Assembly: GCA_964470645.1 (NCBI GenBank)
Contig: CAYYDP010000016.1
Coordinates: forward strand, 1 to 27,323
DNA: 27,323 nt
Reading direction: 5' to 3'
Source of the DNA: an uncultured Gammaproteobacteria bacterium
GTDB taxonomy: Bacteria > Patescibacteriota > Patescibacteriia > CAYYDP01
Part shown: positions 9,204 through 26,884 of the stretch, in pieces
Layout of the letters: every line of letters begins with the position of its first letter
Position numbering within the stretch: position 1 is the first letter of the stretch
Position numbers and translations under genes: made by a program
The notes under the pieces: model-generated
Database searches by the model: none
Told to the model about the DNA's origin: nothing
Seen by the model: the letters and a program-made list of their open reading frames with translations, nothing else

Positions 9204-11777
9204 TCACTTTTTTTCAAATATGAAAACACTATTTGATCCAATTTGTTTCACGTCTGCCAGATCAGCAAGCGTTATTTTTGATTGGGGAGAGATTTTCCAG
9301 TAATCATTTAGCACAAGATAGAGTTCATTGATCTCGTAGGTCTCGAAAATTTCATCAATGAGTTTTTGTGATGGCTCTTTGGTCATTTGTAAGTAATACC
9401 TATGCGCTTGAGACGAGATGGGAATGGAGTAGAAAAATTGAGGGTTTAGTGTTGAGGGCTTTGAGTATAGATTAGTTGAGGAGTCATATCTGCGTTGATC
9501 CGCGTTTTTATCCGCGCCTGCCCCGTAGTGTTCCCATACTTGGGATCTACTACCGGGGTTGATCCGCGTTTTGACGTATTGTGAAAATCCAAACTGATCG
9601 AGAGCTGCTGCGCCGACTGATTGGTTGGCAAGGACGAGATATGGCTTTGAAGCCCGTTCTTCGATTTGTTGGACAGTAGCGAGATCGTCTTGTGAAGTGA
9701 GGTATCCTTTAAAATTCACGAACCGGTCAGAGTGGGGGAATTGAAGGTAAATGTTTGAGACAATAAGAACTGAAAGGAAGATGAAAAAAGAAAGATGGAA
9801 AGTTTTTTTTGATCCATGATCCCCGCCTCGACTCGCTCGCTCGTCGGGCGAGGCGGGCATGATCCATGATCCATGATTGAGGAATAACGGCCATAGAAAT
9901 ACAAGCGAGATTGAGAAGAGGCGCGTGAAGAGTTGGATGTGTTCGCCCGCGGTGACATTTGGTTGGAGATAGAATAGCACGATGAGGGATGATGCAAAGA
10001 TTGAGAGGAAGGAAAGAAGATAGGGTATAGGGTATAGGGTATAGGGTATAGTGAAACTTTCACCATTCCCATGTTCTTCTTCGTCATTCCCGCCCCGACG
10101 CTTTGGTCGGGATAAACTCCAGCGGGAATCCAGAAAAGAAAAGATTGAAGTCTTTTTGTTTTGGTTGTTTACTCCGACGCTTCGGCACCGACGTTCCGAC
10201 CCGAAGACGGCGTCGGAATCGGAGTCCCGACCCGAAGACGGCGTCGGGGTTTCTGGATCCTCGATCAAAGCCGAGGATGACGGGTCTGTTGGTTTTTGTG
10301 TTTTTTTAATTTTTTGAACAGTCGCAAACAAGATAACAATGAAAAACAATAGATAGTAGTTCTTACCAAAAAAATGAATAAATGAAAGTGGGTCGGTATA
10401 GCGGATCCAACTTGGGGCAACGATAGATTTGATTGCGCTGTACGCTTCGGGGTTGAGGTTGATCGAAGTTATTGCAAATTGAGAGTCGAGATTATTATTG
10501 AGGATGAGTGCGCCGGGAATTGCAATTGTGGATGCAATGAAAGCAATGATTACAAGGAATAGGAGCATTGCCTGAACAATGAGTCTTCCAAGCGCTACGT
10601 ATTCGTCGCTTTGAAGTTTCGTGATCGTGGTTTGTGAAATTGAATACATGATGTTCCAACCCAAGAAAACGAATGCGGCAATTCCGGGGAAGGGATGGCA
10701 GAGAAAGGAGGCGAGGGCAAGGAGAGAATAACGTATAAAGGTGTAACGAGACCAATTTCCCACTCGGAAACTCGGCTCGCCAAAAGCGACCAGTTTCGTC
10801 TGCTCTGCCTCAGCGATCACTTGATCACTCGCAGGCGAAACCTGCCTCAAACAGTCCTCGTGGGGAAATTGTCTCACTCCTCCTTTCTCTTGCCAAACGA
10901 GCAGAAGCAAAAGGAGGAGGAAAAAGATTCCTAACGATTGTGGTACAGTCGTCGTAAGAATGGAGAACGGGAGAAGAAAGAAGAAGGCGAGAGATTTATT
11001 TCCAAATGTTTTTTTGAGTAGCCACGGGATAGCGAGGATGACGAGAATGGGTAGGAGGAAAAAATTGATCTGTTTCACTCGAAGTTGTGTTAACGTTGAA
11101 ATGACAGACACAAGTCCGTACTCACCCGAGTAAAGTATGGTTTTTGGTTGGATGTGACCCTCTGTGACAATCGTTTGCTCTGCTGCTCGGTGAACGAAAG
11201 GATCGTAGTCGGTTCCGATGGGGAAGAGGACAGGGAGGATGAGAAAGATTAAAGGGAAGATGATACAAGATAGAAGATACAAGACGCTGTTTGATTGTAA
11301 TTTGGTAATCAGGTAATTAGGTAATTGAGTGATTTGGAATCTTTTATCGAGTTTCACTGATGATGGTAGGTACGTAATGAACACAAGAATCAGTACGGCT
11401 GGTAAGAACCAATTGGGAAGAATGGACCAGACCAGGGGGCTGGATGATGTTGTTTGGAAGTGAGAATAGAAAAAGGCGATGATCAGAACTGCAAGAGGGT
11501 ATAGGGTATAGGGTATAGGGTATAGGTATTTTCTGAACTTCCTCCGTGTCATTGCGAGAAGGCTTTGCGACGAAGCAATCTCATTCTGCCGATGACCGGC
11601 ATTTGAGGTCGTCACACTCATTGCTACTTCGCTCGCGATGACAGTTTTTTTAGCTATCAGTGTTAGTATGATTGAAAGTCCAAGTACTAGCCAGGAAGTG
11701 AGCGTGGTTACTTCAAAAAAAACCACAAGAACACTCGAGAGAATCGTCAGTAAGGAAAGAAAACTGATGTATAGCAT
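9204..11777 (-). CDS. large polytopic membrane protein with a C-terminal soluble domain, interrupted in frame by repeat elements
   Basis: A single 857-aa ORF with many hydrophobic helices. Low-complexity, non-membrane-like stretches coincide exactly with the palindromic elements and heptamer arrays listed separately. No family recognised; a GT-C-like or other membrane enzyme is only a guess. Confidence 0.6.
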   Translation of the reverse strand: MLYISFLSLLTILSSVLVVFFEVTTLTSWLVLGLSIILTLIAKKTVIASEVAMSVTTSNAGHRQNEIASSQSLLAMTRRKFRKYLYPIPYTLYPLAVLIIAFFYSHFQTTSSSPLVWSILPNWFLPAVLILVFITYLPSSVKLDKRFQITQLPNYLITKLQSNSVLYLLSCIIFPLIFLILPVLFPIGTDYDPFVHRAAEQTIVTEGHIQPKTILYSGEYGLVSVISTLTQLRVKQINFFLLPILVILAIPWLLKKTFGNKSLAFFFLLPFSILTTTVPQSLGIFFLLLLLLLVWQEKGGVRQFPHEDCLRQVSPASDQVIAEAEQTKLVAFGEPSFRVGNWSRYTFIRYSLLALASFLCHPFPGIAAFVFLGWNIMYSISQTTITKLQSDEYVALGRLIVQAMLLFLVIIAFIASTIAIPGALILNNNLDSQFAITSINLNPEAYSAIKSIVAPSWIRYTDPLSFIHFFGKNYYLLFFIVILFATVQKIKKTQKPTDPSSSALIEDPETPTPSSGRDSDSDAVFGSERRCRSVGVNNQNKKTSIFSFLDSRWSLSRPKRRGGNDEEEHGNGESFTIPYTLYPIPYLLSFLSIFASSLIVLFYLQPNVTAGEHIQLFTRLFSISLVFLWPLFLNHGSWIMPASPDERASRGGDHGSKKTFHLSFFIFLSVLIVSNIYLQFPHSDRFVNFKGYLTSQDDLATVQQIEERASKPYLVLANQSVGAAALDQFGFSQYVKTRINPGSRSQVWEHYGAGADKNADQRRYDSSTNLYSKPSTLNPQFFYSIPISSQAHRYYLQMTKEPSQKLIDEIFETYEINELYLVLNDYWKISPQSKITLADLADVKQIGSNSVFIFEKK
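9811..9877. repeat. GC-rich hairpin flanked by GATCCAT heptamer repeats, inside the CDS
   Basis: A 9-bp stem, cccgcctcg (9822-9830) pairing with cgaggcggg (9849-9857). gatccat units lie at 9811, 9861 and 9868. It encodes SWIMPASPDERASRGGDHGS between two TM segments. Confidence 0.75.
10020..10052. repeat. (GGGTATA)x4 heptanucleotide tandem array inside the CDS
   Basis: Perfect units at 10023, 10030, 10037 and 10044. They encode IPYTLYPIPY on the minus strand. Confidence 0.9.
10083..10281. repeat. composite ~200-bp GTCAT...ATGAC palindromic element inside the CDS, homologous to the intergenic element downstream of clpB
   Basis: 10083-10131 (gtcattcccgc...gcgggaatcc) matches 26676-24. The A-rich/T-rich core resembles 26786-26835. 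10255-10281 (ggatcctcgatcaaagccgaggatgac) matches 26836-62. It also carries a duplicated hairpin, ccgacccgaagacggcgtcgg x2. Confidence 0.8.
11497..11529. repeat. (GGGTATA)x4 heptanucleotide tandem array inside the CDS, second copy
   Basis: Perfect units at 11497, 11504, 11511 and 11518. They encode YLYPIPYTLYP. Confidence 0.9.
11547..11643. repeat. 97-bp TGTCAT...ATGACA palindromic element inside the CDS
   Basis: tgtcattgcgag...cgaagcaat on the left versus attgctacttcgctcgcgatgaca on the right. It encodes TVIASEVAMSVTTSNAGHRQNEIASSQSLLAMT after the first two TM helices. Confidence 0.75.
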
Positions 11778-11827: not shown

Positions 11828-11854
11828 TTGGCACTCTTGACATGAGAGTGCCAA
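11828..11854. promoter_or_regulatory. CIRCE operator (HrcA binding site)
   Basis: TTGGCACTC-N9-GAGTGCCAA is a perfect 9-bp inverted repeat with a 9-nt spacer. It differs from the TTAGCACTC-N9-GAGTGCTAA consensus by one position per arm and lies 17 nt upstream of the hrcA ATG. Confidence 0.85.
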
Positions 11855-11865
11855 TTTTTTATTAT
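11837..11865 (+). promoter_or_regulatory. candidate sigma-70-type promoter overlapping CIRCE
   Basis: TTGACA (11837-11842, inside the CIRCE spacer), a 17-nt spacer, then TATTAT (11860-11865). The -10 element ends 6 nt before the hrcA ATG, implying a leaderless or near-leaderless mRNA. Confidence 0.5.
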
Positions 11866-11871
11866 TGACTC

Positions 11872-12573
11872 ATGACCAAGGCACAGAACAATTTAAACGA
11901 ACGAAAATCTGCTCTGTTAAGCCAAATTATTGAAGAGTTTGTTGCCTGTGCCGAACCGGTAGGATCACGTTTGATTGTGGATAAGTACGAATGGGATGTG
12001 TCCCCAGCAACGGTGCGTGCTGAAATGTCGGAGCTCGAAGAAGGGGGATATACAACACACCCCCATACGTCTGCGGGAAGAATGCCGACTGAAAAAGGGT
12101 ATCAGTGGTATGTTTCTTCGCTGGATATTCCTTCCATTCGCGTTTCCTCGAGGTTGAACCAGCGATTGGAAGAGTCGGCATCGAGCGCGGAGGGACAAGA
12201 AAAGATTAAAAAGCTTGCGCGTGAGATTGCCGAAATTGCTACAAACGCCGTCGTGGTTGGTTTTGGTAAACGTGATAGCTACTACACTGGTCTTTCGTAT
12301 CTGTTCAGTCATCCCGAATTTAAGGATATCAATCTTGTGAGATCGTTTTCCGAGATTCTTGATCAGCTTGATGAGGCGTTGAATGGACTTGTTGAATCTT
12401 CCGACGAAACCGCATCCGTGGCGATTGGGAAGAATAATCCGTTTGGTTCCGAATGTTCGTTTGTTTCGAGCAAACTCAAGGGGGAGGAGTGTGTGTTCGG
12501 AATTCTGGGACCGCTGCGAATGGATTACAGACGAAATATTGGATTAATAAATTGGATGAGAGAAAATGTATAA
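11872..12573 (+). CDS. hrcA: heat-inducible transcription repressor HrcA (short form, 233 aa)
   Basis: N-terminal wHTH LNERKSALLSQIIEEFVACAEPVGSRLI...SPATVRAEMSELEEGGY, C-terminal motif GILGPLRMDYRRNIGLI, a CIRCE site immediately upstream and grpE downstream. Confidence 0.85.
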   Translation: MTKAQNNLNERKSALLSQIIEEFVACAEPVGSRLIVDKYEWDVSPATVRAEMSELEEGGYTTHPHTSAGRMPTEKGYQWYVSSLDIPSIRVSSRLNQRLEESASSAEGQEKIKKLAREIAEIATNAVVVGFGKRDSYYTGLSYLFSHPEFKDINLVRSFSEILDQLDEALNGLVESSDETASVAIGKNNPFGSECSFVSSKLKGEECVFGILGPLRMDYRRNIGLINWMRENV

Positions 12574-12584
12574 CAAAGGGTACA

Positions 12585-12669
12585 GCGTTTAGTGTTTAGG
12601 GTGTTAGGGAAGACTCTTTCAACGTACACCATGGTTTTGACTAAACGCTAAGCGCTTTACGCTAAACGT
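12585..12669. repeat. imperfect palindrome with heptad-periodic arms (CGTTTAG-type units), fills the hrcA-grpE spacer
   Basis: Left arm cgtttag tgtttag ggtgttag. Right arm ctaaacg ctaagcg ctttacg ctaaacg. The outermost 7 bp pair perfectly (12586-92 with 12662-68). Confidence 0.7.
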
Positions 12670-12676
12670 ATATTTT

Positions 12677-13276
12677 ATGCTTGATCAAAACATCGAAGAA
12701 AAAAACACAAACCAACAGGAAGCCAACAGTGGTCCCACCCAGTCACAGCAACAGTCACATGATGGTTCACAAGCAGAAATTGAACTCTTAAAGACGCAAG
12801 TTGCGGAGTTAACGAACAATTGGAAACGGGCAGCCGCTGATTTGGCAAATTACAAGAAGCAGATTGAAGAGGAAAAGAAGTCGTGGGCGTTGTTTTCACT
12901 GGTGGGATCGGTTTCACAGTTTTTGCCGATTTTGGATAATATGAATTCAGCACTCGCGGCACAACCAAACCCTGATTCCGTAGATGGTCCGTTTAAACAG
13001 TTTTTGATAGGACTGGGTCACATTCAAAAACAGTTCAGTGACGTGCTTACCCAAATGGGGGTTGTCGAGATCTCTGCCGCGGGAGCAGTGTTCGATCCTT
13101 CCATTCACGAATCCGTGAGTACGGATGGGGAGGTGACGGGGAAGGGCTCACTCGTGGTTGCGTCCGTATTGACAAAGGGATATCAGTTTCAGGGACAGTT
13201 GATTCGTCCAGCGAGAGTCGTGGTGAAAGAGGTGATTGAAAATGTGCCAATGACCGATACGCCAATGAACCAATAA
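12677..13276 (+). CDS. grpE: nucleotide exchange factor GrpE
   Basis: Coiled-coil N-terminal half (LKTQVAELTNNWKRAAADLANYKKQIEEEKK), a GrpE-like C-terminal beta domain (FDPSIHESV...GYQFQGQLIRPARVVV) and position between hrcA and dnaK. Confidence 0.9.
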   Translation: MLDQNIEEKNTNQQEANSGPTQSQQQSHDGSQAEIELLKTQVAELTNNWKRAAADLANYKKQIEEEKKSWALFSLVGSVSQFLPILDNMNSALAAQPNPDSVDGPFKQFLIGLGHIQKQFSDVLTQMGVVEISAAGAVFDPSIHESVSTDGEVTGKGSLVVASVLTKGYQFQGQLIRPARVVVKEVIENVPMTDTPMNQ

Positions 13277-13412
13277 ATTCCAAATAACAAATCACAAATT
13301 CCAAACAAATTCCAATGACCAAATACCAAAATCCAAAATAAAAAAGATCGAATGTTTGGAATTATGAATTTGAGATTTATTTGTGATTTGGTGCTTGGGA
13401 TTTGGGTTTTAA
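13275..13412. repeat. ~138-bp imperfect palindrome, CCAAA-rich 5' arm and TTTGG-rich 3' arm with ~7-nt periodicity
   Basis: 5' arm aaattcc aaataac aaatcac aaattcc ... aaatacc aaaatcc. 3' arm gtttgga attatga atttgag atttatt tgtgatt tggtgct tgggatt tgggttt. It starts on the grpE stop codon. Confidence 0.65.
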
Positions 13413-13473
13413 AGGAAAGTGAGAATAATAAAGGTCGAACTTTTGGTAGAAATATATTGTACATATTAGTACT

Positions 13474-13896
13474 ATGGCACTTATTCGATGGCAACCATTC
13501 AGAGAAATTGAAGAATTTGACGACATGTTTTCCGGTTTTCCGAGCTTAATGCGCGGTGTCTCTTCGTGGGTACCGGCGGTTGACGTCTATCAGGACAAGG
13601 ACAACGTGTACGTCGAATTGGAGGCACCGGGCATTGACGCGGACAAATTGAGTTTGACTGTTGAAAACGACGTGTTGATGGTAGAATACAAGGAAGAGCG
13701 AAAAACAGAAGTCGATGAGAAAAATTACTACCGCAAAGAGATGCGCTCCCGCTCATTTCACCGCTCGATCCCCTTGCCGGCATCTGTCGCGGGGGATAAC
13801 GCTACGGCAACCTACACCAACGGTATTTTATTAGTGACCGTCCCCAAGCGGGAGGAAGTGAAGCCGAAGACTGTTAAAGTGCAGGTGAAGAAATAA
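13474..13896 (+). CDS. small heat-shock protein, Hsp20/alpha-crystallin family
   Basis: 140 aa with an alpha-crystallin core PAVDVYQDKDNVYVELEAPGIDADKLSLTVENDVLMV...FHRSIPLPASV...ATYTNGILLVTVPK. Confidence 0.92.
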   Translation: MALIRWQPFREIEEFDDMFSGFPSLMRGVSSWVPAVDVYQDKDNVYVELEAPGIDADKLSLTVENDVLMVEYKEERKTEVDEKNYYRKEMRSRSFHRSIPLPASVAGDNATATYTNGILLVTVPKREEVKPKTVKVQVKK

Positions 13897-13912
13897 TTCC
13901 ACTGATACGCTG

Positions 13913-13938
13913 TTCCTCTCTCCATGGTGAGAGGGGAA
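13913..13938 (+). other. stem-loop downstream of hsp20 (terminator-like hairpin without a U tract)
   Basis: ttcctctctc pairs with gagaggggaa as a 10-bp stem including one G-U. The loop is about 6-7 nt and no T run follows. Confidence 0.5.
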
Positions 13939-13961
13939 TAGAAATGAGGGGGATGTGATTT

Positions 13962-14135
13962 AAACCCGAAGCACGAAGTACGAAATACGAAAAAAGAATG
14001 CAAAAATCAAATCTCAAAAGTCAAAATGTAAATGCAAAGTGCAAAATTCTCCATTTTGAATTATCATTTTGATATTTGATGTTTGAATTTTGATATTGAG
14101 TTTGTTTCGAGTTTCGATATTCGAATTTCGGATTT
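13962..14135. repeat. 174-bp heptad-periodic palindrome, copy A (paralog at 17491-17657)
   Basis: Nearly identical to copy B. 5' arm cccgaag cacgaag tacgaaa tacgaaa ... tcaaaag tcaaaat. 3' arm attttga ... gtttgaa ttttgat ... gagtttc gatattc gaatttc. It ends 9 nt before ATG 14145. Confidence 0.9.
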
Positions 14136-14144
14136 TTATCTCTT

Positions 14145-14474
14145 ATGTCCAATGATATTCTTAAGTTGAGCGTTGAATTGATCAAGAAGTGTCCCATGTG
14201 CGGTCAGGCGTGCACCCCGGGCGAGGGTGAAGTGTTGGAGACCTCGGACCAGCATTCTGTCACGTTTTTTCGATGTGACGCTTGTCAGAGCTCGTTTTTG
14301 ATGAATCTGATCCACTACCCATTCGGAGTTATTGGCTCGTTATTATTCACGGACCTGAATTCAAAGGAAATCAGGAAATTTCAGCATTCACCCCTTGTGG
14401 ACGAGGATGATGTACTCGAGATACACACAACTATACATAATCAACAAGTCGAAAGATTATTCATGAAACATTGA
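14145..14474 (+). CDS. hypothetical small zinc-ribbon protein (CPMC...CDAC)
   Basis: 109-aa ORF co-directional in the heat-shock cluster with two CxxC pairs. Its ATG sits at the same offset from the palindrome as the dnaJ ATG does from copy B. No family recognised. Confidence 0.5.
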   Translation: MSNDILKLSVELIKKCPMCGQACTPGEGEVLETSDQHSVTFFRCDACQSSFLMNLIHYPFGVIGSLLFTDLNSKEIRKFQHSPLVDEDDVLEIHTTIHNQQVERLFMKH

Positions 14475-14485
14475 TAAATAAAGGT

Positions 14486-14548
14486 TGTCATGGTGAGCCT
14501 GTCGAACCATTACGTTAATGTAGCCCTTCGACTTAGCTCAGGGTGACA
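14486..14548. repeat. REPIN-like inverted doublet of GTCAY-headed stem-loops directly upstream of dnaK
   Basis: tgtcATGGTgagcctgtcgaACCAT ... CCCTtcgacttagctcAGGGtgaca. Two units sit in inverted orientation with a conserved loop GAGCNTGTCGA and different but self-complementary stems. Confidence 0.8.
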
Positions 14549-14556
14549 GAAGAACT

Positions 14557-16470
14557 ATGTCAAAGATTATTGGAATTGATTTAGGAACCACCAATTCTGC
14601 CATGGCGGCGGTGTTGGGTGGGGAACCCAAGGTCATTGAAAACATTGAAGGTGCACGAACCACACCGTCGGTGGTTGCGTTTACCAAAGCCTCGGAATGG
14701 GTTGTTGGTATTGCCGCAAAGCGGCAAGCGGTCACGAATCCAACCAACACGGTATATTCGGTGAAACGGTTGATCGGACGAAGATTTGATGATCCGGAAG
14801 TTCAGCGGGCAATGAAAACCTTGCCGTATAAGATTGTCCAAAAGGGCGAGGGGGTTGCGGTTGTTCTCGAGGGCAAGGAATATACGCCCCAGGAAATTTC
14901 CGCGAAAGTTTTGCAGAAACTCAAAGCCGACGCGGAAAAGAAACTCGGTGATACCGTAACGGAGGTAGTGATCACGGTTCCAGCGTATTTTGACGACGCG
15001 CAACGAAAAGCAACGAAGGAAGCGGGTGAGATTGCTGGGTTGACGGTAAAGCGCATTTTGAATGAGCCGACGGCTGCCGCCCTCGCGTACGGGTTTGACA
15101 AAAAGAAAGATCAAAAGATAGCCGTGTATGATCTCGGGGGAGGCACCTATGATATTTCCGTACTCGAAGTTTCATCCGATACGGTTGAAGTCCGCGCGAC
15201 AAACGGGGACACGCATCTCGGGGGAGATGATTTTGACCAGCGTGTCATTGACTGGATTTTGGAAGAGTTCAAAAAAGATCAGGGAATCGATCTTTCCAAA
15301 GATCCGTTAGCCCTGCAACGCATCAAAGAGGCCGCGGAAAAAGCGAAGATCGAACTCTCAACGCAGACCGAAGTTGAAATTAACCAGCCCTTTATCTCTT
15401 CTGGCGCGGAAGGTCCAAAGCACTTACTCATGAAGCTGTCCCGGGCAAAACTCGAATCACTCGTTGGCGATTTGGTTGAAAAAACATTGGAGCCCATGAA
15501 GAAGGCGCTTGCTGACGCAAAAATGTCCGTGTCTGACATCCAAGAAGTGGTGATGGTTGGAGGAATGACGAGGATGCCGAAAGTTGTTGAAACCGTTGAG
15601 AAGTTCTTTGGAAAGAAGCCGAATATGTCCGTGAATCCGGACGAGGTTGTCGCGGTGGGAGCCGCGGTTCAAGCGGGTATCTTGCAGGGTGATGTGAAAG
15701 ATGTGTTGCTCCTTGATGTTACTCCGTTAACACTTGGAATTGAAACACTGGGTGGTGTTTCAACGCCCATTATTAACCGCAACACAACAGTTCCAACGGC
15801 AAAGTCTCAAGTCTTCTCAACCGCGGCAGACAACCAGCCTTCGGTTGAAATTCATGTTCTGCAGGGAGAGCGTCCCATGGCAGCAGACAATAAGACGCTT
15901 GGACGGTTTATCTTGGATGGCATTCCACCAGCGCCACGCGGTGTTCCTCAGGTTGAAGTTACGTTTGATATTGATGCAAATGGGATTTTGTCCGTCACGG
16001 CGAAAGACAAAGCAACAAACAAATCCCAAAAGATTACCATTACCGCTTCAACGGGCCTTTCAAAAGACGAGATCGAGCGGATGAAAAAAGAGGCAGAGGC
16101 GCACGCGGAAGATGACAAGAAAAAACGAGAAATGATTGATTTGCGCAATAACGCAGATGCAATGGTATACTCAACAGAGAAAACGTTGAAAGAGGCTGGA
16201 GATAAAGTCCCTGCGGACGTTAAAAAAGATGTTGAGGAAAAGCTGGAGGCAGTGAAGAAGGTGAAAGACGGCGAAGACGCCGCGGGTTTGAAAACGGCGC
16301 TTGACGCGTTGTCGCAAACGATTCAGAAGATTGGATCAGCGATGTATGGGAAGCCCGGGGAACATGGGAGCAAGGGGGAAGGTGAGCAAGGAAATCCAAG
16401 TAACCAGCCGTCTGAGGAAAAAAAAGAAGAAGGAAAGACTGTTGAGGGGGAGTATGAGAAGAAGTCGTAA
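14557..16470 (+). CDS. dnaK: molecular chaperone DnaK (Hsp70)
   Basis: 637 aa with [31 protein letters not shown], a substrate-binding domain and a charged C-terminal tail. Confidence 0.98.
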
Positions 16471-16486
16471 AGCGAGCGAAGCGGAG

Positions 16487-16521
16487 CCCCGCACTTCCGC
16501 CTGAGGCGGATAGTGCTGGGG
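16487..16521 (+). other. strong GC-rich stem-loop after dnaK (terminator-like, no U tract)
   Basis: ccccgcacttccgcc / ggcggatagtgctgggg gives about 15 bp with two single-nt bulges and a tga loop. Confidence 0.6.
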
Positions 16522-16524
16522 TCC

Positions 16525-16554
16525 TAAAGTCGAAAGTCTATAAAGTCGGAAAGC
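16525..16554. repeat. degenerate (N)AAAGTC heptamer array
   Basis: taaagtc gaaagtc ta taaagtc ggaaagc. The same motif forms the 17-bp tandem repeat at the clpB stop. Confidence 0.6.
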
Positions 16555-16569
16555 GAATTACTAATTGTT

Positions 16570-16863
16570 ATGGATCCAAAGAAAGTTTACAAACCCAAGA
16601 AACCCGAGGAGGTATATCCACGTTTAGATCCAAAAAAGATCTATAGGAGACTTGATCCGAAAGAAGTTTATGGTGGTGGGAAGCGTGATACGGTGCCAGA
16701 GACTGGCTTTGTTTCTATTGACGAGATTGTAAGCTTAGGTCAAGAAGATAAAGCGAATATTAAAAGAATATTGGAAGGGTTATCTCGCGCGGAGCAGCAA
16801 ATAATACTCGTCGCCATGAAAAAGCTAGATGATACAATTTTAGCTTGCCGAAAAGTGAAGTAA
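16570..16863 (+). CDS. hypothetical small protein with N-terminal (L)DPK(K/E)(V/I)Y repeats
   Basis: 97-aa ORF with three copies of a 9-aa motif (DNA repeats at 16573, 16627 and 16654) and a helical-looking C-terminal half. No family recognised. Confidence 0.45.
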   Translation: MDPKKVYKPKKPEEVYPRLDPKKIYRRLDPKEVYGGGKRDTVPETGFVSIDEIVSLGQEDKANIKRILEGLSRAEQQIILVAMKKLDDTILACRKVK

Positions 16864-16932
16864 AAATTTTACTAAGTCTAATCGGGTGCGTATTGCGGCG
16901 CGGTACGCCCTTCGTTAGTAATAAAAGCAAAT

Positions 16933-17035
16933 TGTCATTGCGAGCGAGTCCTGGAACAGAGTGATAGGATAGGGTCCAGTAATTGTGTGTTGAACTTTGG
17001 ATCCTATCGCTCCCATTGGTTGCTCCAGGATGACA
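16933..17035. repeat. 103-bp TGTCAT...ATGACA palindromic element
   Basis: tgtcattgcgagcgagtcctggaacagagtgataggat ... atcctatcgctcccattggttgctccaggatgaca. Intergenic. Confidence 0.8.
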
Positions 17036-17050
17036 CGAACTAATCTAGAG

Positions 17051-17155
17051 TGTCATGTTGGAACGGAGCGTAGCGGAGTGATAGCATCCAATTTTGTCTC
17101 GTGAGATGTGGATTCCATCCGCTATCGTACTACGTACTCCAGCGTCCAGAATGAC
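17051..17155. repeat. 105-bp TGTCAT...ATGAC palindromic element, diverged tandem neighbour
   Basis: tgtcatgttggaacggagcgtagcggagtgatagcatcca ... tggattccatccgctatcgtactacgtactccagcgtccagaatgac. Confidence 0.75.
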
Positions 17156-17189
17156 TACTTTTAAATTTAGGATGACAGCCAATATTATT

Positions 17190-17492
17190 ATGTCCAACAA
17201 CAATCAACAACAAATTCAAATCCAGGCAAAGCCGGAAGAACTTCAAGGTCATTATTCGAATTTTTTTCAGGTGACGCATTTGAGCCGCGAAGAATTCTTG
17301 CTTGATTTTTTGTTTTTAGACGGTCCGCGCGGTGTGGGAGCGTTATCGAGCAGAGTCATTGTAAGCCCCCAGCAGGCGAAGCGAGTGCTTGCCGCGCTGC
17401 AGGAGAATGTAAAGAATTATGAAGAAAAATTCGGCGCGATTGAAATGGGTCAGAAGCAGGAGGAGAAGGAAGTAGGGTTCAAAATACAATAA
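17190..17492 (+). CDS. DUF3467 family protein
   Basis: MSNNNQQQIQIQAKPEELQGHYSNFFQVTHLSREEFLLDFLF...SRVIVSPQQAKRVLAALQENVKNYEEKFG matches my recollection of the DUF3467 pattern. The track start at 17094 runs into the palindromic element, so ATG 17190 is used. Confidence 0.75.
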   Translation: MSNNNQQQIQIQAKPEELQGHYSNFFQVTHLSREEFLLDFLFLDGPRGVGALSSRVIVSPQQAKRVLAALQENVKNYEEKFGAIEMGQKQEEKEVGFKIQ

Positions 17493-17657
17493 ATCCGAAG
17501 CACGAAGTACGAAATACGAAAAAGAATGCAAATCTCAAATCTCAAAAGTCAAAATGTAAATGCAAAGTGCAAAATTCTCCATTTTGAATTATCATTTTGA
17601 TATTTGATGTTTGAATTTTGATATTGTTTCGAGTTTCGATATTCGAATTTCGGATTT
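17491..17657. repeat. 167-bp heptad-periodic palindrome, copy B (paralog of 13962-14135)
   Basis: It differs from copy A by about 3 substitutions, a 1-nt A-run indel and a 6-nt indel in the 3' arm. It starts on the DUF3467 stop codon and ends 7 nt before the dnaJ ATG. Confidence 0.9.
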
Positions 17658-17664
17658 TATAGTT

Positions 17665-18807
17665 ATGGCAAAGGATTACTATTCCATCCTGGGTGTTTCA
17701 AAAAGCGCGTCGCAAGACGAGATCAAGAAAGCGTTTCGAGCTCTCGCGCACAAGTATCATCCGGACAAAGGAACGGGTGATGAGGCGAAGTTCAAAGAGG
17801 TGAATGAGGCGTATCAGGTTCTTTCGGACGAAACGAAACGGCAACAGTATGACCAATACGGTCAGACGTTTGAAGATGCGCAGAGAAACGGAGGGGCTGG
17901 GTTTGGTGGGTTTGGCGGAGGACAAGGATTCCGGTGGGAAGACGTCGCTTCTCAATTCGGTGGACAGGGCGGGTTTCGTCAGGGGAATGTTGAGTTTGAT
18001 TTTGGAAATCTCAATGACGTGTTTGGGGATTTTTTTGGATTTGGCGGAGGTCGTTCCAGCACGGGGCAGCGAAGTGCTTCAAAACACGGGAGGGATTTGG
18101 AGATGTCGGTTGAACTCACGCTGGAGGAAGCATTTTTTGGTTTGAAAAAAGAATTATCGTTTGAGTCGTTTGAATTGTGTCATGAGTGCGATGGCAGCGG
18201 TGCGGATCGTACTGCGGGAACCAAAGCCTGTCACGCATGCAAAGGCTCGGGTGAAGTAGCCCATACTCAGCGCAGTGTGTTCGGAGTGTTTCAGACCCGT
18301 GGAATTTGTTCAACATGCGAAGGAGCTGGCGTGATTGTGGAGAAAGCGTGCACTGCGTGTAAGGGCAAAGGAAGAGTGCTTAAGAATCGGACATTGACTG
18401 TGAAGATTCCTGAAGGTGTTGAGGACGGAGTTTCCATCAGATTGCGCAACGAGGGTGAAGCGGGAGAGAAAGGCGCGGATGCGGGTGATTTGTATGTGAA
18501 AGTTCGAGTGAAGAATACGACCGAGTTTAAGCGATTGGGAGCTGATTTGGAATATCGGTTACCACTCCACATCACCGATGCTGCGCTCGGTACCAAAATA
18601 GATGTGAAATTATTTGACGAAGAAATTCGTGTGAAAGTGCCGGAGGGAACGCAGAGCGGAACTATCATTAAAATTAAAGGGAAAGGTATGCCCCATATGC
18701 AGTCGCGCGGACGGGGGGATTTGTTGGTGCGAGTCGATGTTGAGACACCGAAACATCTTTCAAAGAAGCAGAAAGAGTTGCTTGAGGAACTCAAGAGAGA
18801 ATCATGA
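17665..18807 (+). CDS. dnaJ: molecular chaperone DnaJ (type I Hsp40)
   Basis: J domain DYYSILGV...YHPDK, a G/F-rich linker, four CxxCxGxG zinc-finger motifs ([32 protein letters not shown]) and a C-terminal domain. The track start at 17611 lies inside the palindrome, so ATG 17665 (MAKDYY) is used. Confidence 0.95.
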
Positions 18808-18904
18808 AGCAAGAATCATGAATCATGGATATGGCAAGCGGAGCTTGCCTTTGGAAACACCGTCGTGTTTCCACGCATAATTCGTAATTCTTAATACTTG
18901 ATTC
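18799..18904. repeat. ~106-bp palindrome: GAATNNN heptad arms enclosing two perfect GC hairpins
   Basis: Left arm gaatcat gaagcaa gaatcat gaatcat. Hairpins ggcaagc-gga-gcttgcc (18833-49) and ggaaacac-cgtc-gtgtttcc (18853-72). Right arm cataatt cgtaatt cttaata cttgatt c. It overlaps the dnaJ stop. Confidence 0.75.
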
Positions 18905-18917
18905 AAGATCGTGTGAA

Positions 18918-19769
18918 ATGATACGAATCTTGGACAATTGGGTTACATCCGGATACGCGAATATGATTGGTAAAAAATATCTGAAGGTCTTCACTAACGC
19001 CATTCAAGAAACCCTTCAGTACCGGGTGAATTTTTTATTTGGGCGAATTACTAATTTAGTGGTACTTGTGTCAATGTATTTTCTTTGGATGAATGTGTTC
19101 GTGGATCCCGGCACGCAGTTTTTCGGATTTTCCAAGCCGGATATTATCACATACGTTCTTGGGGCTAGTGTTGTGTATGCGATTGTGTTTGTCCAATCCA
19201 TGAACCCAATCGCGTTTGAGATCGCCGATGGGGACTTGTCCAATTATCTCGTGAAACCGATAAGCTATTTCAAATATTGGTTTTCTCGAAACAACGCGGA
19301 GCGCGTTCTGCTCCTGGTCATGTCGTTTGTTGAAATTGGAATTATTTCATTGTTCATAGATCGTTCTATGATTGTGATTCAATCGGACGTTAGTGTCTTA
19401 TGTGTTTTTGTGGTTTCGGTGGTTTTGTCTGTTGTTACCTATCAGCTGATCGATTTTTTACTTGGGACAACCGCGTTTTGGTTCTATAAATCATTTGGTC
19501 CTCGATTCGCTATCCAAACCACGGTGATGCTTGCGTCTGGGTATTTGTTTCCGATGAGCGTTTTACCGACGTGGCTACGGACCCCACTTGAATTGACCCC
19601 GTTTCCTTACTTAGTAAATTTTCCGGTGCAGTTGTATTTGGGGAAACTGTCAGCGGAACAAATCGTGACAGGGTTTACCATTTTGGCGTGTTGGATTGTT
19701 GGACTGTTTGTCGTGTATCGTGTCACCTGGATGAAAGGGCTGAGGATGTTTGAAGGGGCGGGGAGGTAA
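18918..19769 (+). CDS. ABC-2 family transporter permease (COG4587/COG3694-type, DUF990-like)
   Basis: N-terminus KKYLKVFTNAIQETLQYRVNFLFG followed by about 6 TM helices. It is paired with a second permease and a COG4586-like ATPase nearby. An alternative ATG lies at 18963. Confidence 0.8.
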   Translation: MIRILDNWVTSGYANMIGKKYLKVFTNAIQETLQYRVNFLFGRITNLVVLVSMYFLWMNVFVDPGTQFFGFSKPDIITYVLGASVVYAIVFVQSMNPIAFEIADGDLSNYLVKPISYFKYWFSRNNAERVLLLVMSFVEIGIISLFIDRSMIVIQSDVSVLCVFVVSVVLSVVTYQLIDFLLGTTAFWFYKSFGPRFAIQTTVMLASGYLFPMSVLPTWLRTPLELTPFPYLVNFPVQLYLGKLSAEQIVTGFTILACWIVGLFVVYRVTWMKGLRMFEGAGR

Positions 19770-19850
19770 CCTCCCCTAACCCCTCCTTCATAAGGAGGGG
19801 ACAGTATAAAATGTTCTCCCCTTACGAAGGGGAGAATGTAAGAGGGGTTA
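19767..19850. repeat. 84-bp structured element, copy 1 (two stem-loops closed by an outer stem)
   Basis: It starts on the TAA stop. SL1 cccctcctt-cat-aaggagggg, SL2 ttctcccctt-acg-aaggggagaa, outer pairing aacccct/aggggtt. It ends 7 nt before ATG 19858. Confidence 0.85.
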
Positions 19851-19857
19851 TGGATTT

Positions 19858-20643
19858 ATGAAACGTTATTTGAGCCTATTTCTGCAACTTGCGAACATGG
19901 CGTTTGGGAGCGCAACGTCTTCGCAACTTGATTTTTGGTCATTTATCATCGGCAAGCTCATTCGGATGGCGATCTGGCTCACGTTGATTTATTCACTCTT
20001 CAATTTTACTGATTCTGTTGCCGGATTTTCCAAAGGACAGATGGTCATGATGTACGCGACCATGAACTTGATTGATGTGGTGGTTCAGGTGTTGTTTTAT
20101 CGAGGGTTTCAGGCACTGCAACACGAGGTGCGAAAAGGGAATTTTGATTTTGTACTCACGAAGCCGGTAAATCCCATCGCGCTTGTTGCCTTTCGATACG
20201 TGGATCTTATGGATATTGTAACCCTACCATTTTCCATTGCAGTGTTGGTCTATGGAATTTCTTTGGTTGGGAGCGTTTCGTTGATGAATGTTGTCTTATA
20301 TGCGCTTCTTGTTATGAATGGGCTTGTTATTATTTTAGGGTTGTGTTTGATTTTCGGAGGTTTGACGTTTTACACCACGCAGATGGAAAATATTTGGTGG
20401 TTCTACCGCTACGGAATGCAGGTAGCTAGGTTTCCGGTTGATATTTATTCTGGGTTTTTTAGATTTTTCTTTACCTATGTCCTACCCATGGCGTTTATCG
20501 TAACCTTTCCTGCGAAAGCGTATTTTGGTGTTCTTTCATTGCCGTTTTATGTGTATTCATTTATTCTTTCAGTGGGTTTGGTGTTGTTCGGAGTTTGGTT
20601 TTGGAACCACGCGGTCGCCAGGTACCAAAGCGCAAGCTCCTAA
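19858..20643 (+). CDS. ABC-2 family transporter permease, second subunit
   Basis: 261 aa with about 6 TM helices and the same architecture as the preceding gene. Confidence 0.8.
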   Translation: MKRYLSLFLQLANMAFGSATSSQLDFWSFIIGKLIRMAIWLTLIYSLFNFTDSVAGFSKGQMVMMYATMNLIDVVVQVLFYRGFQALQHEVRKGNFDFVLTKPVNPIALVAFRYVDLMDIVTLPFSIAVLVYGISLVGSVSLMNVVLYALLVMNGLVIILGLCLIFGGLTFYTTQMENIWWFYRYGMQVARFPVDIYSGFFRFFFTYVLPMAFIVTFPAKAYFGVLSLPFYVYSFILSVGLVLFGVWFWNHAVARYQSASS

Positions 20644-20727
20644 CCTCCCCTAACCCCTCCTTCGTAAGGAGGGGACAGTAGGAAAGAGTGTCTCCCCCTT
20701 ACGAAGGGGGAGATGCAAGAGGGGGTT
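20641..20727. repeat. 87-bp structured element, copy 2
   Basis: taacctcccctaacccctccttcgtaaggagggg...tctcccccttacgaagggggaga...agagggggtt. It again starts exactly on the TAA stop of the permease. Confidence 0.85.
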
Positions 20728-20740
20728 TGTGTTTCGAGTT

Positions 20741-21517
20741 ATGACCAATATTTTCATCATCAACGGTTACGGAGTCCCAAAGGACATCTTCAAAGATGAT
20801 AATTATCATTTTTATTTGAACATGGTATTTAATCAGATTTGGTGGTTCGACAGGGCTCACCATGACAAAAAAGAGAATGTCACCCTGAGCTTGTCGAAGG
20901 GAGGCAATAATGTACTTATCATTTTTAGTGGTGGAAAGACGGATTGTTTTCCTCCATACCGTCGAACGGAAGCGGGGGAGATGAAGAAACTATTTTTGCA
21001 TATCATGAATCGGGATTCAGTGAAAGAAACTACGAAACATTGGACAATCGTTACGCAAACAAAGTCATTGACGACGGTTGAGAATTTGGTGTATGGGAGA
21101 GAACTAATATATTCCCTGAGCGGAGGTTCTGCGAAGTCGAAAGGTCTCCATTATGGAAGCTCTGCGACAAGCTCAGAGAGTATTAATGTTTCTTACTTCT
21201 GCGAGTCTACCCGTTTTGAGCGATCGCACATTTTGAGTAGAAAAGTTTTTCTCAAAGCGTGGAACCCAACCGTGATTCCTATTGATTTTGACGTCTCCCC
21301 ACAACGATATCTGAATGAAGCATTATTGAATGCCCGTGAGAAAAAGGCGCTGGAGTATGAGTTGTGGGCGTTAAAGAGTTCAAAGAATCTGAAAGCGTGG
21401 AGAGAGGTGTATCAGGAACGCATCAAATTCTTACGAAATGCAGGACAAAAGGCGAATCACGAAGCCGTCAAAGAGTGGTTGGAGAAGAGGTTGGTGAGTT
21501 TGCCAATTCCGAAATAA
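20741..21517 (+). CDS. DUF218/YdcF-like protein carrying an in-frame repeat insertion
   Basis: IIFSGGKT...RRTEAGEMKK...TKSLTTVENLVYG resembles the DUF218 motifs (SGG, EA..M, S.nT.eN). The track start at 20729 is GTG, and ATG 20741 is used. Confidence 0.65.
   Translation: MTNIFIINGYGVPKDIFKDDNYHFYLNMVFNQIWWFDRAHHDKKENVTLSLSKGGNNVLIIFSGGKTDCFPPYRRTEAGEMKKLFLHIMNRDSVKETTKHWTIVTQTKSLTTVENLVYGRELIYSLSGGSAKSKGLHYGSSATSSESINVSYFCESTRFERSHILSRKVFLKAWNPTVIPIDFDVSPQRYLNEALLNAREKKALEYELWALKSSKNLKAWREVYQERIKFLRNAGQKANHEAVKEWLEKRLVSLPIPK
20844..20901. repeat. head-to-head pair of GTCAY stem-loop units inside the DUF218 CDS
   Basis: ggttcgacagggctcaccatgaca aaaaagagaa tgtcaccctgagcttgtcgaaggg. These are the same two unit types as upstream of dnaK but with heads facing inward. 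They encode WFDRAHHDKKENVTLSLSKG. Confidence 0.8.
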
Positions 21518-23953: not shown

Positions 23954-23980
23954 AAAACCTCTTGAAAAAGAGGTTTTTTT
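23954..23980 (+). terminator. rho-independent terminator
   Basis: aaaacctctt-gaaa-aagaggtttt followed by a T run, 3 nt after the TAG stop. Confidence 0.85.
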
Positions 23981-24064
23981 ATGCTAAAATAAGGACAATA
24001 ATCTCGCAACCTGTAAAATGTAACTTGAAACCGAAGGTAAATGGACATTAAGGTATTTTAAAAA

Positions 24065-24093
24065 GTTACAAGCTAAAGGTTACAGGCTATAAG
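24065..24093 (+). promoter_or_regulatory. candidate clpB promoter
   Basis: TTACAA (24066-71), a 16-nt spacer, then TATAAG (24088-93). The -10 element ends 6 nt before the ATG, the same geometry as at hrcA. The -35 and the spacer carry a direct repeat GTTACAaGCTA / GTTACAgGCTA. Confidence 0.35.
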
Positions 24094-26664: not shown

Positions 26665-26675
26665 AAGTCCATAAA
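26642..26675. repeat. perfect 17-bp tandem duplication (gtctaaaagtccataaa x2) spanning the clpB stop codon
   Basis: Copies at 26642-58 and 26659-75. The clpB TAA (26662-64) lies in copy 2, and the last residues LKVHKV are encoded by the repeat. Confidence 0.9.
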
Positions 26676-26724
26676 GTCATTCCCGCCCCGTATGAAACTA
26701 CGGGGTAAACTGCAACGGGAATCC
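26676..26724. repeat. nested stem-loop unit gtcattcccgc...gcgggaatcc (paralog of 10083-10131)
   Basis: Outer stem attcccg/cgggaat. Inner stem ccccgta/tacgggg, where the paralog has cccgac/gtcggg, which is also self-complementary. Confidence 0.8.
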
Positions 26725-26756
26725 AAACAACATAAATCAAAAAACAAAAAGATATA

Positions 26757-26863
26757 TGTCATCCTGAAGTTTCATTCAGGATCCAGAACAAAAAAAGAAA
26801 AGACTGAATTCTTTTTGTTTTTGTTTTTTATTTCTGGATCCCGTGTCAAAGCACGGGATGACA
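26757..26863. repeat. 107-bp TGTCAT...ATGACA palindromic element
   Basis: gtcatcctgaa-gtttca-ttcaggatcc, an A-rich then T-rich core, then ggatcccgtg-tcaaag-cacgggatgac. The two terminal stem-loops are in inverted orientation. Confidence 0.85.
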
Positions 26864-26884
26864 AATGAAGCATGAAGTATGAAT
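26864..26884. repeat. heptamer array aatgaag catgaag tatgaat
   Basis: Three NATGAAG-type units abut the palindrome end. They are similar in form to the NACGAAG units of 13962/17491. Confidence 0.55.

Follow-up and report, generated by a model that had tools for sequence, protein, structure and literature searches.

Hairpin-forming elements at the junctions of a heat-shock gene array

The DNA analyzed here is contig CAYYDP010000016.1, a stretch of 27,323 nt that is referred to as the window. Its forward strand encodes a co-directional array of hrcA (11872-12573), grpE, hsp20, orf109, dnaK, orf97, a DUF3467 gene (17190-17492), dnaJ, two ABC-2 permease genes (ABC2a and ABC2b), and a DUF218-like gene, and the gene names given for this array were confirmed by a Pfam search. 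The spacers between these genes contain long hairpin-forming palindromes, which are the subject of this work. The best matches of the window DnaK among the GTDB species representatives are Patescibacteria metagenome-assembled genomes at only 73 to 76% identity, which points to a sparsely sampled lineage of the Patescibacteria as the source of this DNA.

Each spacer in the window was folded and compared with 100 dinucleotide shuffles. A preliminary description, made from the letters of the sequence, had placed one hairpin in each of seven consecutive spacers of the array. All seven hairpins are present in nearly exact agreement with that description, and all seven spacers fold better than their shuffles (z = -2.3 to -6.2). 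On the + strand, element A (12577-12669) lies in the hrcA-grpE spacer (103 nt, -35.5 kcal/mol, z = -5.4), element C1 (13962-14135) in the hsp20-orf109 spacer (248 nt, -77.8 kcal/mol, z = -6.0), and element D (14486-14548) in the orf109-dnaK spacer (82 nt, -23.6 kcal/mol, z = -2.3). Element C2 (17491-17657) lies between the DUF3467 gene and dnaJ (172 nt, -51.0 kcal/mol, z = -6.2), element G (18799-18904) between dnaJ and ABC2a (110 nt, -34.1 kcal/mol, z = -3.1), element H1 (19767-19850) between ABC2a and ABC2b (88 nt, -40.4 kcal/mol, z = -4.3), and element H2 (20641-20727) between ABC2b and the DUF218-like gene (97 nt, -46.0 kcal/mol, z = -3.3). The ends of C1, C2, H1, and H2 found by aligning the copies with each other are those given previously.

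The stop-to-start geometry reported for these hairpins held in part. The 5' arms begin 0 to 11 nt past the upstream stop codon or overlap it, and the 3' ends lie 7 to 15 nt, instead of the reported 7 to 13 nt, before the next ATG. C1 stops 9 nt before the orf109 ATG and C2 ends 7 nt before the dnaJ ATG. C2 contributes with its first bases the final two letters of the DUF3467 TAA stop codon, G overlaps the dnaJ stop codon, and H1 and H2 begin with the TAA stop codons of ABC2a and ABC2b, respectively. The seven spacers are not consecutive, however, as the array from hrcA to the DUF218-like gene has 10 junctions, and the three that had been left out also carry hairpins and break the geometry. Element B (13277-13403) starts directly after the grpE stop codon and ends 70 nt before the hsp20 ATG. 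Element E (16483-16525), a GC-rich hairpin, begins 12 nt past the dnaK stop codon and has its 3' end 44 nt from the orf97 ATG. Three elements, among them the palindromes F1 (16934-17034) and F2 (17052-17155), lie in the orf97-DUF3467 spacer, which is 326 nt long. A hairpin in the clpB leader (24008-24081) was considered as a counterexample with the same geometry and no upstream cistron, but it was dropped since it folds no better than its shuffles (z = 0.15).

Folds of the antisense strand are equally good, with similar z values, and G-U pairs number 27 in the sense strand versus 23 in the antisense strand. The hairpins are thus DNA palindromes rather than sense-strand-specific RNA structures. 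They were also rejected as intrinsic terminators, because no GC-rich stem followed by a U tract coincides with them on the + strand between 11872 and 21517.

Arm architecture defines several element families

The preliminary description counted at least four unrelated families in the seven spacers. By sequence there are five, namely A, C (two copies), D, G, and H (two copies), but they are not all unrelated in build, as A, C, and G share heptamer-array arms with each other and with the previously omitted B. The arms of A, B, C1, C2, and G consist of degenerate 7-nt tandem repeats followed by an inverted array: GTTTAGN and CTAAACG in the two arms of A, nine copies of AAATTCC in B, and four copies of GAATCAT around an inner GGCAAGCGGAGCTTGCC stem in G. 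Lag-7 autocorrelation across the ten spacers was 0.41 versus 0.27 in shuffles (z = 13), and Tandem Repeats Finder detected period-7 arrays in each arm of all five elements. An inverted-repeat finder restricted to Watson-Crick pairs missed most elements because heptamer arms carry periodic mismatches, and folding of the junctions was used in its place.

Members of the D and F class are GTCAY...RTGAC palindromes. D, upstream of dnaK, is an inverted doublet of GTCAYSSTGAGC..TCGAASS units, F1 has the form GTCATTGCGAG...CCAGGATGAC, and F2 is a second GTCAT...ATGAC palindrome. The H elements are a third type; H1 reads TAACCTCCCCTAACCCCTCC...GAGGGGTTA. C1 is a 174-nt palindrome with the ends AAACCCGAAG...TTTCGGATTT. 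Both C and H are short noncoding elements with terminal inverted repeats, AAATCCGAA/TTCGGATTT in C (167 to 174 nt) and TAACCCCTC/GAGGGGTTA in H. These terminal repeats, together with the dispersed copies of C, H, and G at nonhomologous sites described below, are features by which miniature inverted-repeat transposable elements (MITEs) are recognized. A search of Rfam 15 gave no match at the gathering score, and the matches at the E-value threshold were at chance level.

Two further identities were considered and rejected. An integron attC or cassette array does not agree with a gene order that is conserved in about 45 loci; no integrase is encoded in the window, and a reading of the sequence revealed no RYYYAAC/GTTRRRY core sites. 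TIGR-Tas guide arrays are found in candidate phyla radiation (CPR) bacteria. They are built of 36-nt units with edge and loop repeats and 9-nt spacers next to a Tas gene with a Nop domain (PMC12045711), whereas the period here is 7 nt and no Nop-domain protein is encoded in the window.

Orthologous spacers differ in element content between close relatives

Syntenic contigs of relatives (designated by L numbers) were retrieved through GrpE and ABC2b homologs. In close relatives, dnaK is 82 to 88% identical at the nucleotide level, and the positions of stop codons and the C termini of the proteins are conserved. The spacers are not, and the same junctions contain unrelated hairpins or none, so that elements are present, absent, or replaced from one relative to the next. 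Element A has no counterpart in L001 and L002, and a family G element takes its place in L205. The window, L205, and L207 share C1, which is missing in L001 and L002. The spacer before dnaK (orf110-dnaK) is an unstructured 37 nt in L001, holds a 118-nt heptamer hairpin in L002 and a hairpin other than D in L207, and contains the D doublet in the window. The ABC2a-ABC2b spacer measures 3 nt in L208 and carries a different, 67-nt hairpin in L207 and L210 in place of H1. Three different elements occupy the ABC2b-DUF218 spacer in three lineages: H2 in the window, a heptamer hairpin in L206 and L207, and a GTCATT..AATGAC element in L210 and L211.

The only spacer structure kept in all four close relatives is a stem-loop without a U tract that follows hsp20 (13910-13941) and precedes C1. 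A AAAGGTCGA motif at about 13425-13435, some 45 nt ahead of the hsp20 ATG, is conserved in the window, L001, L002, and L205, and this motif and the post-hsp20 stem-loop are the only conserved noncoding features of the array.

Orthologous copies were found for C2 and G, both of which occupy the same place in L207 as in the window. Compensatory substitutions, for which the preliminary description had proposed to search, were absent from an alignment of C1, C2, and the L207 copy of C2: none of the 57 consensus pairs shows a double change, 3 show one-sided wobble changes, and 5 are broken or gapped in one copy. Nucleotide identity between the window (14100-20643) and L207 is a mosaic, with 45 to 57% over the end of ABC2a (19600-19820) and 96 to 98% within dnaJ (18396-18635), which suggests recombination between lineages. 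A block of 96 to 98% identity (18756-18995) covers the end of dnaJ, element G, and the start of ABC2a. The high conservation of G (99% versus L207) was therefore rejected as evidence of constraint, being part of a larger block that includes coding DNA.

Copies are dispersed over unrelated loci and inserted into coding sequences

Copy numbers of families A to H refer to the 27-kb window together with the loci of relatives and metagenome matches. Within this scope the elements are multicopy and dispersed. C1 and C2 share 94 to 98% identity, and H1 and H2 are 93% identical in their first 45 nt, a stretch that contains the TAA with which both permease genes terminate. In L205, a clear family G element with an inner GGCAAGCGRAGCTTGCC stem separates hrcA from grpE, whereas G lies between dnaJ and ABC2a in the window and L207. 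L210 contains two copies of a fourth hairpin family in adjacent spacers.

Metagenomes were scanned with four C-type heptamers, which matched at least 120 loci. Among the matches listed are about 40 full relatives of C, approximately 110 to 230 nt long, on contigs with a GC content of 0.39 to 0.66. The ends of the family are sharp and conserved (5'-AAATYCGAAGCACGAAATCCGAAA...TTTGTTTCGARTTTCGATATTCGAATTTCGGATTT-3', also written AAATYCGAAG...TTCGGATTT). A downstream gene could be called for 33 of the copies listed and was on the same strand in 18 and on the opposite strand in 15. The same-strand start codons of these listed copies lie 5 to 657 nt away (median of about 100 nt). The offsets between hairpin and start codon, proposed earlier as a genome-wide check of function, are thus not tight in this family. 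Among the matches listed, the neighbors of C copies at 38 loci included neither a recurring protein family nor a parent insertion sequence. The window copies of C are flanked by TA, which may be part of the inverted repeat, and about 10 metagenome copies had no shared flanking target-site duplication. The 20 largest open reading frames (ORFs) of the window contain no transposase domain, and a Pfam search gave no Y1_Tnp match.

The exact D unit was found in 13 IMG/VR contigs. Scans of IMG/VR with short 14-mers gave matches at chance level. A BLAST search of PLSDB and INPHARED with C1 found no match, in a search where low-complexity filtering may hide repeats, and the C sequence had no match in the searchable literature. 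The heptamer-built C palindrome appears to be uncatalogued in Rfam and the searchable literature. On a phage-like IMG/VR contig (L084, 1080-1180), four or five 14-nt periodic repeats (CACAAAGTAACCTA) fill a spacer just before an ATG and provide a further example of short tandem repeats that abut a start codon.

Related units also lie in frame inside genes. The DUF218-like gene contains two in-frame insertions of GTCACCCTGAGC..TCGAAGGG-type (D-type) units that are missing from the L206 and L211 orthologs, a unit pair at 20861-20912 and a second insertion at 21113-21180 that adds 17 residues relative to L206 and L211. On the minus strand, orf857 encodes a large membrane protein in which GGGTATA arrays and palindromic repeats are translated. 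One block (10008-10281) combines four copies of GGGTATA with a copy of an element found after clpB, and the other, in the N-terminal part (11496-11645), combines four copies of GGGTATA with a GTCATTGCGAG...GCGATGAC palindrome. The L001 ortholog (748 amino acids) lacks the repeats of the window protein, including the N-terminal block, and carries a "FLDSRFHGNDN"-type insert at another position. The repeats and small palindromes downstream of clpB (26641-26866, + strand, z = -5.3) are not intercistronic. A perfect 17-nt tandem repeat (AGTCTAAAAGTCCATAA, 2.2 copies, 26641-26678) spans the clpB stop codon, and several small palindromes that follow it are related to the block inside orf857.

Folded spacers in other Patescibacteria resemble short spacers with an insert

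The gene order hrcA-grpE-(hsp20)-dnaK-dnaJ is conserved in about 45 Patescibacteria loci, and all junctions between heuristic ORF calls in 45 loci were folded. Many spacers of the heat-shock operon are 1 to 30 nt long in other Patescibacteria, and others contain strong hairpins. Among the co-directional spacers, 88 are strongly folded; their structures begin a median of 4 nt past the stop codon and leave a median of 9 nt ahead of the start codon, and the leftover unstructured flanks, taken from minimum-free-energy structures that bias them to small values, sum to a median of 15 nt (interquartile range of 9 to 26 nt). Unfolded co-directional spacers, of which there are 403, measure a median of 14 nt (interquartile range of 2 to 48 nt). 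The leftover flanks thus equal the length of an empty spacer, and a folded spacer therefore has the appearance of a normal short spacer to which a self-folding insert has been added. More room is retained on the start side than on the stop side (Wilcoxon P = 0.0016), as expected if protection is limited to the bases just before the ATG. When start codons were anchored by homology, the 3' offset of strongly folded spacers ranged from 1 to 38 nt.

On the basis of these comparisons, we consider the hairpins probably to be nonautonomous palindromic repeats, similar to MITEs, repetitive extragenic palindromic (REP) sequences, and REPINs, of at least five families that have colonized the spacers of this Patescibacteria genome. 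The heptamer class (A, B, C, and G) would combine a degenerate heptamer array with its inverted copy. Elements would insert or spread where a compact genome tolerates additional DNA, that is, in co-directional spacers of about 15 nt, at gene ends, and in frame in tolerant protein loops. An element in a very short spacer would necessarily begin at or near the stop codon, and it would be retained only if the last 7 to 15 nt before the ATG were left intact. The recurring geometry would then arise because host spacers are very short (about 15 nt) and the bases before the ATG are protected. Colonization by repeats would account for hairpins that hug stop codons, end short of start codons, and differ between spacers, as well as for their replacement between close relatives and for the presence of the same units inside genes and after clpB. 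That the elements are mobile, and by what mode, we infer from the sequence comparisons. The preliminary description had listed selfish elements surviving only in spacers as an alternative to coupling; this alternative fits the evidence best, except that the related in-frame units show that spacers are not the only sites.

Several observations weigh against repeat colonization. No transposase or REP-associated tyrosine transposase (RAYT) gene was found in the 27-kb window, and no target-site duplication was found in about 10 C copies. A and B are single-copy elements and could have arisen in situ by slippage of heptamers followed by palindrome formation or strand switching. All 10 junctions of the array are occupied, versus none of the four co-directional junctions at 0.6 to 3.3 kb of the window (-17 to 47 nt), and in the 44 other Patescibacteria loci (the Patescibacteria subset of L003 to L082), heat-shock operon junctions are enriched 2.4-fold in folded spacers, with 40 of 183 hrcA-grpE-dnaK-dnaJ junctions versus 42 of 407 other co-directional junctions (P = 3e-4). 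Such an uneven distribution is a hint that the operon tolerates or uses the elements in a specific manner. The orthologous copies of C2 in the window and L207 are 92% identical, which exceeds the neutral expectation beside genes of about 86 to 90% identity; concerted evolution or mosaic recombination may be responsible. Finally, the comparative gene calls rest on crude longest-ORF heuristics, and the bias of the flank lengths noted above acts in favor of the short flanks.

Transcription signals and possible effects on mRNA

The occupancy and enrichment of the heat-shock junctions bear on whether the host has recruited the hairpins as intercistronic mRNA elements, in the manner of REPs and bacterial interspersed mosaic elements (BIMEs), that determine the stability of mRNA segments or are processed by RNases. 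Such elements would tune the ratios of DnaK, DnaJ, GrpE, and Hsp20 from one transcript controlled by the HrcA operator CIRCE (controlling inverted repeat of chaperone expression). A perfect CIRCE-type operator (TTGGCACTC-N9-GAGTGCCAA, 11828-11854, + strand), which had no match in 100 shuffles and is the only one in the window, overlaps the best sigma-70-like promoter (TTGACA-17-TATTAT, 11837-11865, + strand) upstream of hrcA, the only strong promoter-like site. This site (11828-11865), which is not among the repeat elements, is the probable start of the hrcA transcription unit. No canonical terminator was found on the + strand before 23954-23977, where the first clear one lies. One strong promoter with a CIRCE and no intervening terminator make a single long transcript over the array plausible, and the hairpins are probably cotranscribed. 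A scan of the window for tRNA and tmRNA genes found none.

REP, enterobacterial repetitive intergenic consensus (ERIC), and Correia elements either stabilize the segments of mRNA that lie upstream of them or are cleaved by RNase III or RNase E. In Bacillus subtilis, the dnaK operon mRNA undergoes processing between hrcA and grpE. If the hairpins are analogous to REP and Correia elements, they would be cotranscribed and would be barriers to exonucleases or sites for RNases, and such an effect on mRNA could weigh more in the heat-shock operon with its enrichment in folded spacers. Nearly all lineages have some hairpin in these spacers, although from different families. In opposition to recruitment, the same families are found after terminal genes, within coding sequences, and in unrelated contigs in any orientation; L001 has weakly structured spacers of 37 to 76 nt at three junctions; and no junction-specific sequence or structure is conserved other than the post-hsp20 stem-loop. 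We therefore regard recruitment for mRNA stability or processing as unlikely, with some chance of being correct.

Hairpins that precede grpE, dnaK, dnaJ, and orf109 in operons where folded spacers are enriched might also be RNA thermometers or attenuators placed ahead of each heat-shock gene. The start codons and the 7 to 15 nt before them are outside the stems, however, and stems of -35 to -78 kcal/mol would be too stable to melt with physiological changes in temperature. Elements of this kind are also found ahead of the ABC-2 permease and DUF218-like genes, the hairpins lack U tracts, and the structures are not conserved in relatives. A thermometer or attenuator is accordingly an explanation to which we give almost no credence.

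Tests of translational coupling

The preliminary description proposed that each fold sets the stop codon of one gene beside the start codon of the next, so that a terminating ribosome would melt the base of the stem, or reinitiate across it, and thereby couple translation of the two genes. The geometry itself is real at seven junctions. The description had also remarked that most starts downstream of hairpins lack a Shine-Dalgarno (SD) motif. This is correct for those starts but is not specific to them, as an SD-like core at -13 to -5 is found in none of 23 window genes. The 15 nt upstream of these 23 starts are AT rich (0.40 to 0.87, and at least 0.60 in 19 of 23), and the organism probably initiates translation without SD pairing. 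Reinitiation could therefore be of help to it. In addition, ancestral spacers of 1 to 5 nt in other Patescibacteria suggest former coupling by proximity, which a folding insert would disturb least.

The effect of a terminating ribosome was mimicked by holding the 12 nt past the stop codon single stranded and computing the cost of opening positions -15 to +15 around the next start. In this model, the opening cost dropped by 2.1 to 3.1 kcal/mol at three junctions, hrcA>grpE, DUF3467>dnaJ, and ABC2a>ABC2b, which would favor coupling there. The change was about 1 kcal/mol or less at three of the seven junctions, and the cost rose by 3.7 kcal/mol at ABC2b>DUF218. Opening the -15 to +15 region is predicted to take 6.9 to 15 kcal/mol at the seven junctions versus 5.4 to 7.5 kcal/mol at element-free control junctions. 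All seven ATGs lie 7 to 15 nt outside the stems, and the start codons are thus not sequestered.

Known cases of coupling also differ from what is predicted here. A review reports that coupling falls off gradually as spacing increases from +50 to +350 nt, that structure right after the upstream stop codon correlated negatively with coupling in a library screen, and that the known cases of coupling by RNA unfolding sequester the downstream ribosome-binding site (PMC12548453). Three of the ten junctions of the array depart from the geometry, the hairpins are absent in close relatives or replaced there by unrelated ones, and no consensus pair covaries. The C copies listed occur in both orientations without bias and without a fixed start offset, and 3' offsets before homology-anchored starts vary widely in other Patescibacteria. 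Hairpin-mediated coupling is thus unsupported beyond the geometry, and we judge it very improbable as an explanation of these spacers.

A variant in which palindromes of selfish origin have been filtered or co-opted is only slightly less doubtful. Here the fold would restore the closeness of stop and start codons, and the ribosome would reinitiate across the base of the stem in a bacterial counterpart of ribosome shunting. If true, co-opted hairpin-bridged coupling would explain why a hairpin is found at these junctions in each lineage despite the turnover of sequences.

One gene of the array calls for a separate comment. orf97 (16570-16863) has no Pfam match, contains internal DPKK(V/I)Y repeats, and is missing in L001 and L207, in which the interval between dnaK and the DUF3467 gene is 387 and 205 nt, respectively. 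It may not be a real gene.

Implications for streamlined genomes

Patescibacteria are regarded as minimal and streamlined, yet each junction of a core heat-shock operon here has a palindromic repeat. The repeats change from one close relative to the next and in some cases are translated as part of a protein, which bears on how much selfish DNA streamlined genomes tolerate. They also affect annotation, as repeats of this kind yield spurious ORFs, wrong start codons, and broken assemblies. In addition, the geometry of a hairpin relative to stop and start codons is no proof of function when host spacers are about 15 nt long. The widespread heptamer-built palindrome represented by C1 and C2 merits a proper description.

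Comparison with known repeats and coupling systems

The elements resemble the REPs, BIMEs, and REPINs of Enterobacteria and Pseudomonas, which are short imperfect extragenic palindromes, often arranged as inverted doublets like element D, that are present in many copies in intercistronic spacers and at 3' ends and are cotranscribed, as predicted here. Liang, Rudd, and Deutscher reportedly found in 2015 that a stop codon lies no more than about 15 nt from many REPs, which there affect the upstream gene. Unlike REPs and REPINs, the elements described here have no GTAG-type head and are not accompanied by a RAYT gene in the window. They are up to 174 nt long, several unrelated families occur together, and some copies are translated in frame.

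The likeness to MITEs such as the Correia/NEMIS elements of Neisseria and the ERIC/IRU elements of Enterobacteria lies in a noncoding length of 100 to 170 nt, terminal inverted repeats, long hairpins in mRNA, dispersal in intergenic DNA, and presence or absence that varies between strains. The elements differ from the Correia and ERIC elements in their degenerate heptamer arms, and neither a target-site duplication (about 10 C copies) nor a parent insertion sequence was found. Rickettsia palindromic elements offer a parallel for palindromic repeats that occur in frame in coding genes as well as in intergenic DNA. Their sequence and host are unrelated, and only the D, F, and "FLDSRFHGNDN" types are found inside genes here.

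In coupling by RNA unfolding, as in rpmI-rplT, MS2 coat-lysis, and f1 gene VII-IX, an upstream ribosome opens a structure (PMC12548453), and it could do so here as well. In those systems, the helix includes the downstream ribosome-binding site and has one strand inside the upstream reading frame, whereas here the entire hairpin follows the stop codon and the start codon is outside it.

Intergenic tandem repeats of 7 nt are also known from the short tandemly repeated repetitive (STRR) sequences of cyanobacteria, the TAACTGA repeats of Beggiatoaceae (PMC4679880), and the heptanucleotide elements of Geobacter metallireducens (PMC2700814). The Beggiatoa repeats lie a few nucleotides upstream of start codons in regions without canonical ribosome-binding sites (PMC4679880), and in G. 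metallireducens, arrays of five heptamers occur as multicopy sites in pairs, and alignment figures depict the two strands of these sites as looped (PMC2700814). The heptamers described here differ from these families in that they are degenerate and always paired with an inverted array to form a hairpin of 60 to 175 nt, and the family varies by spacer.

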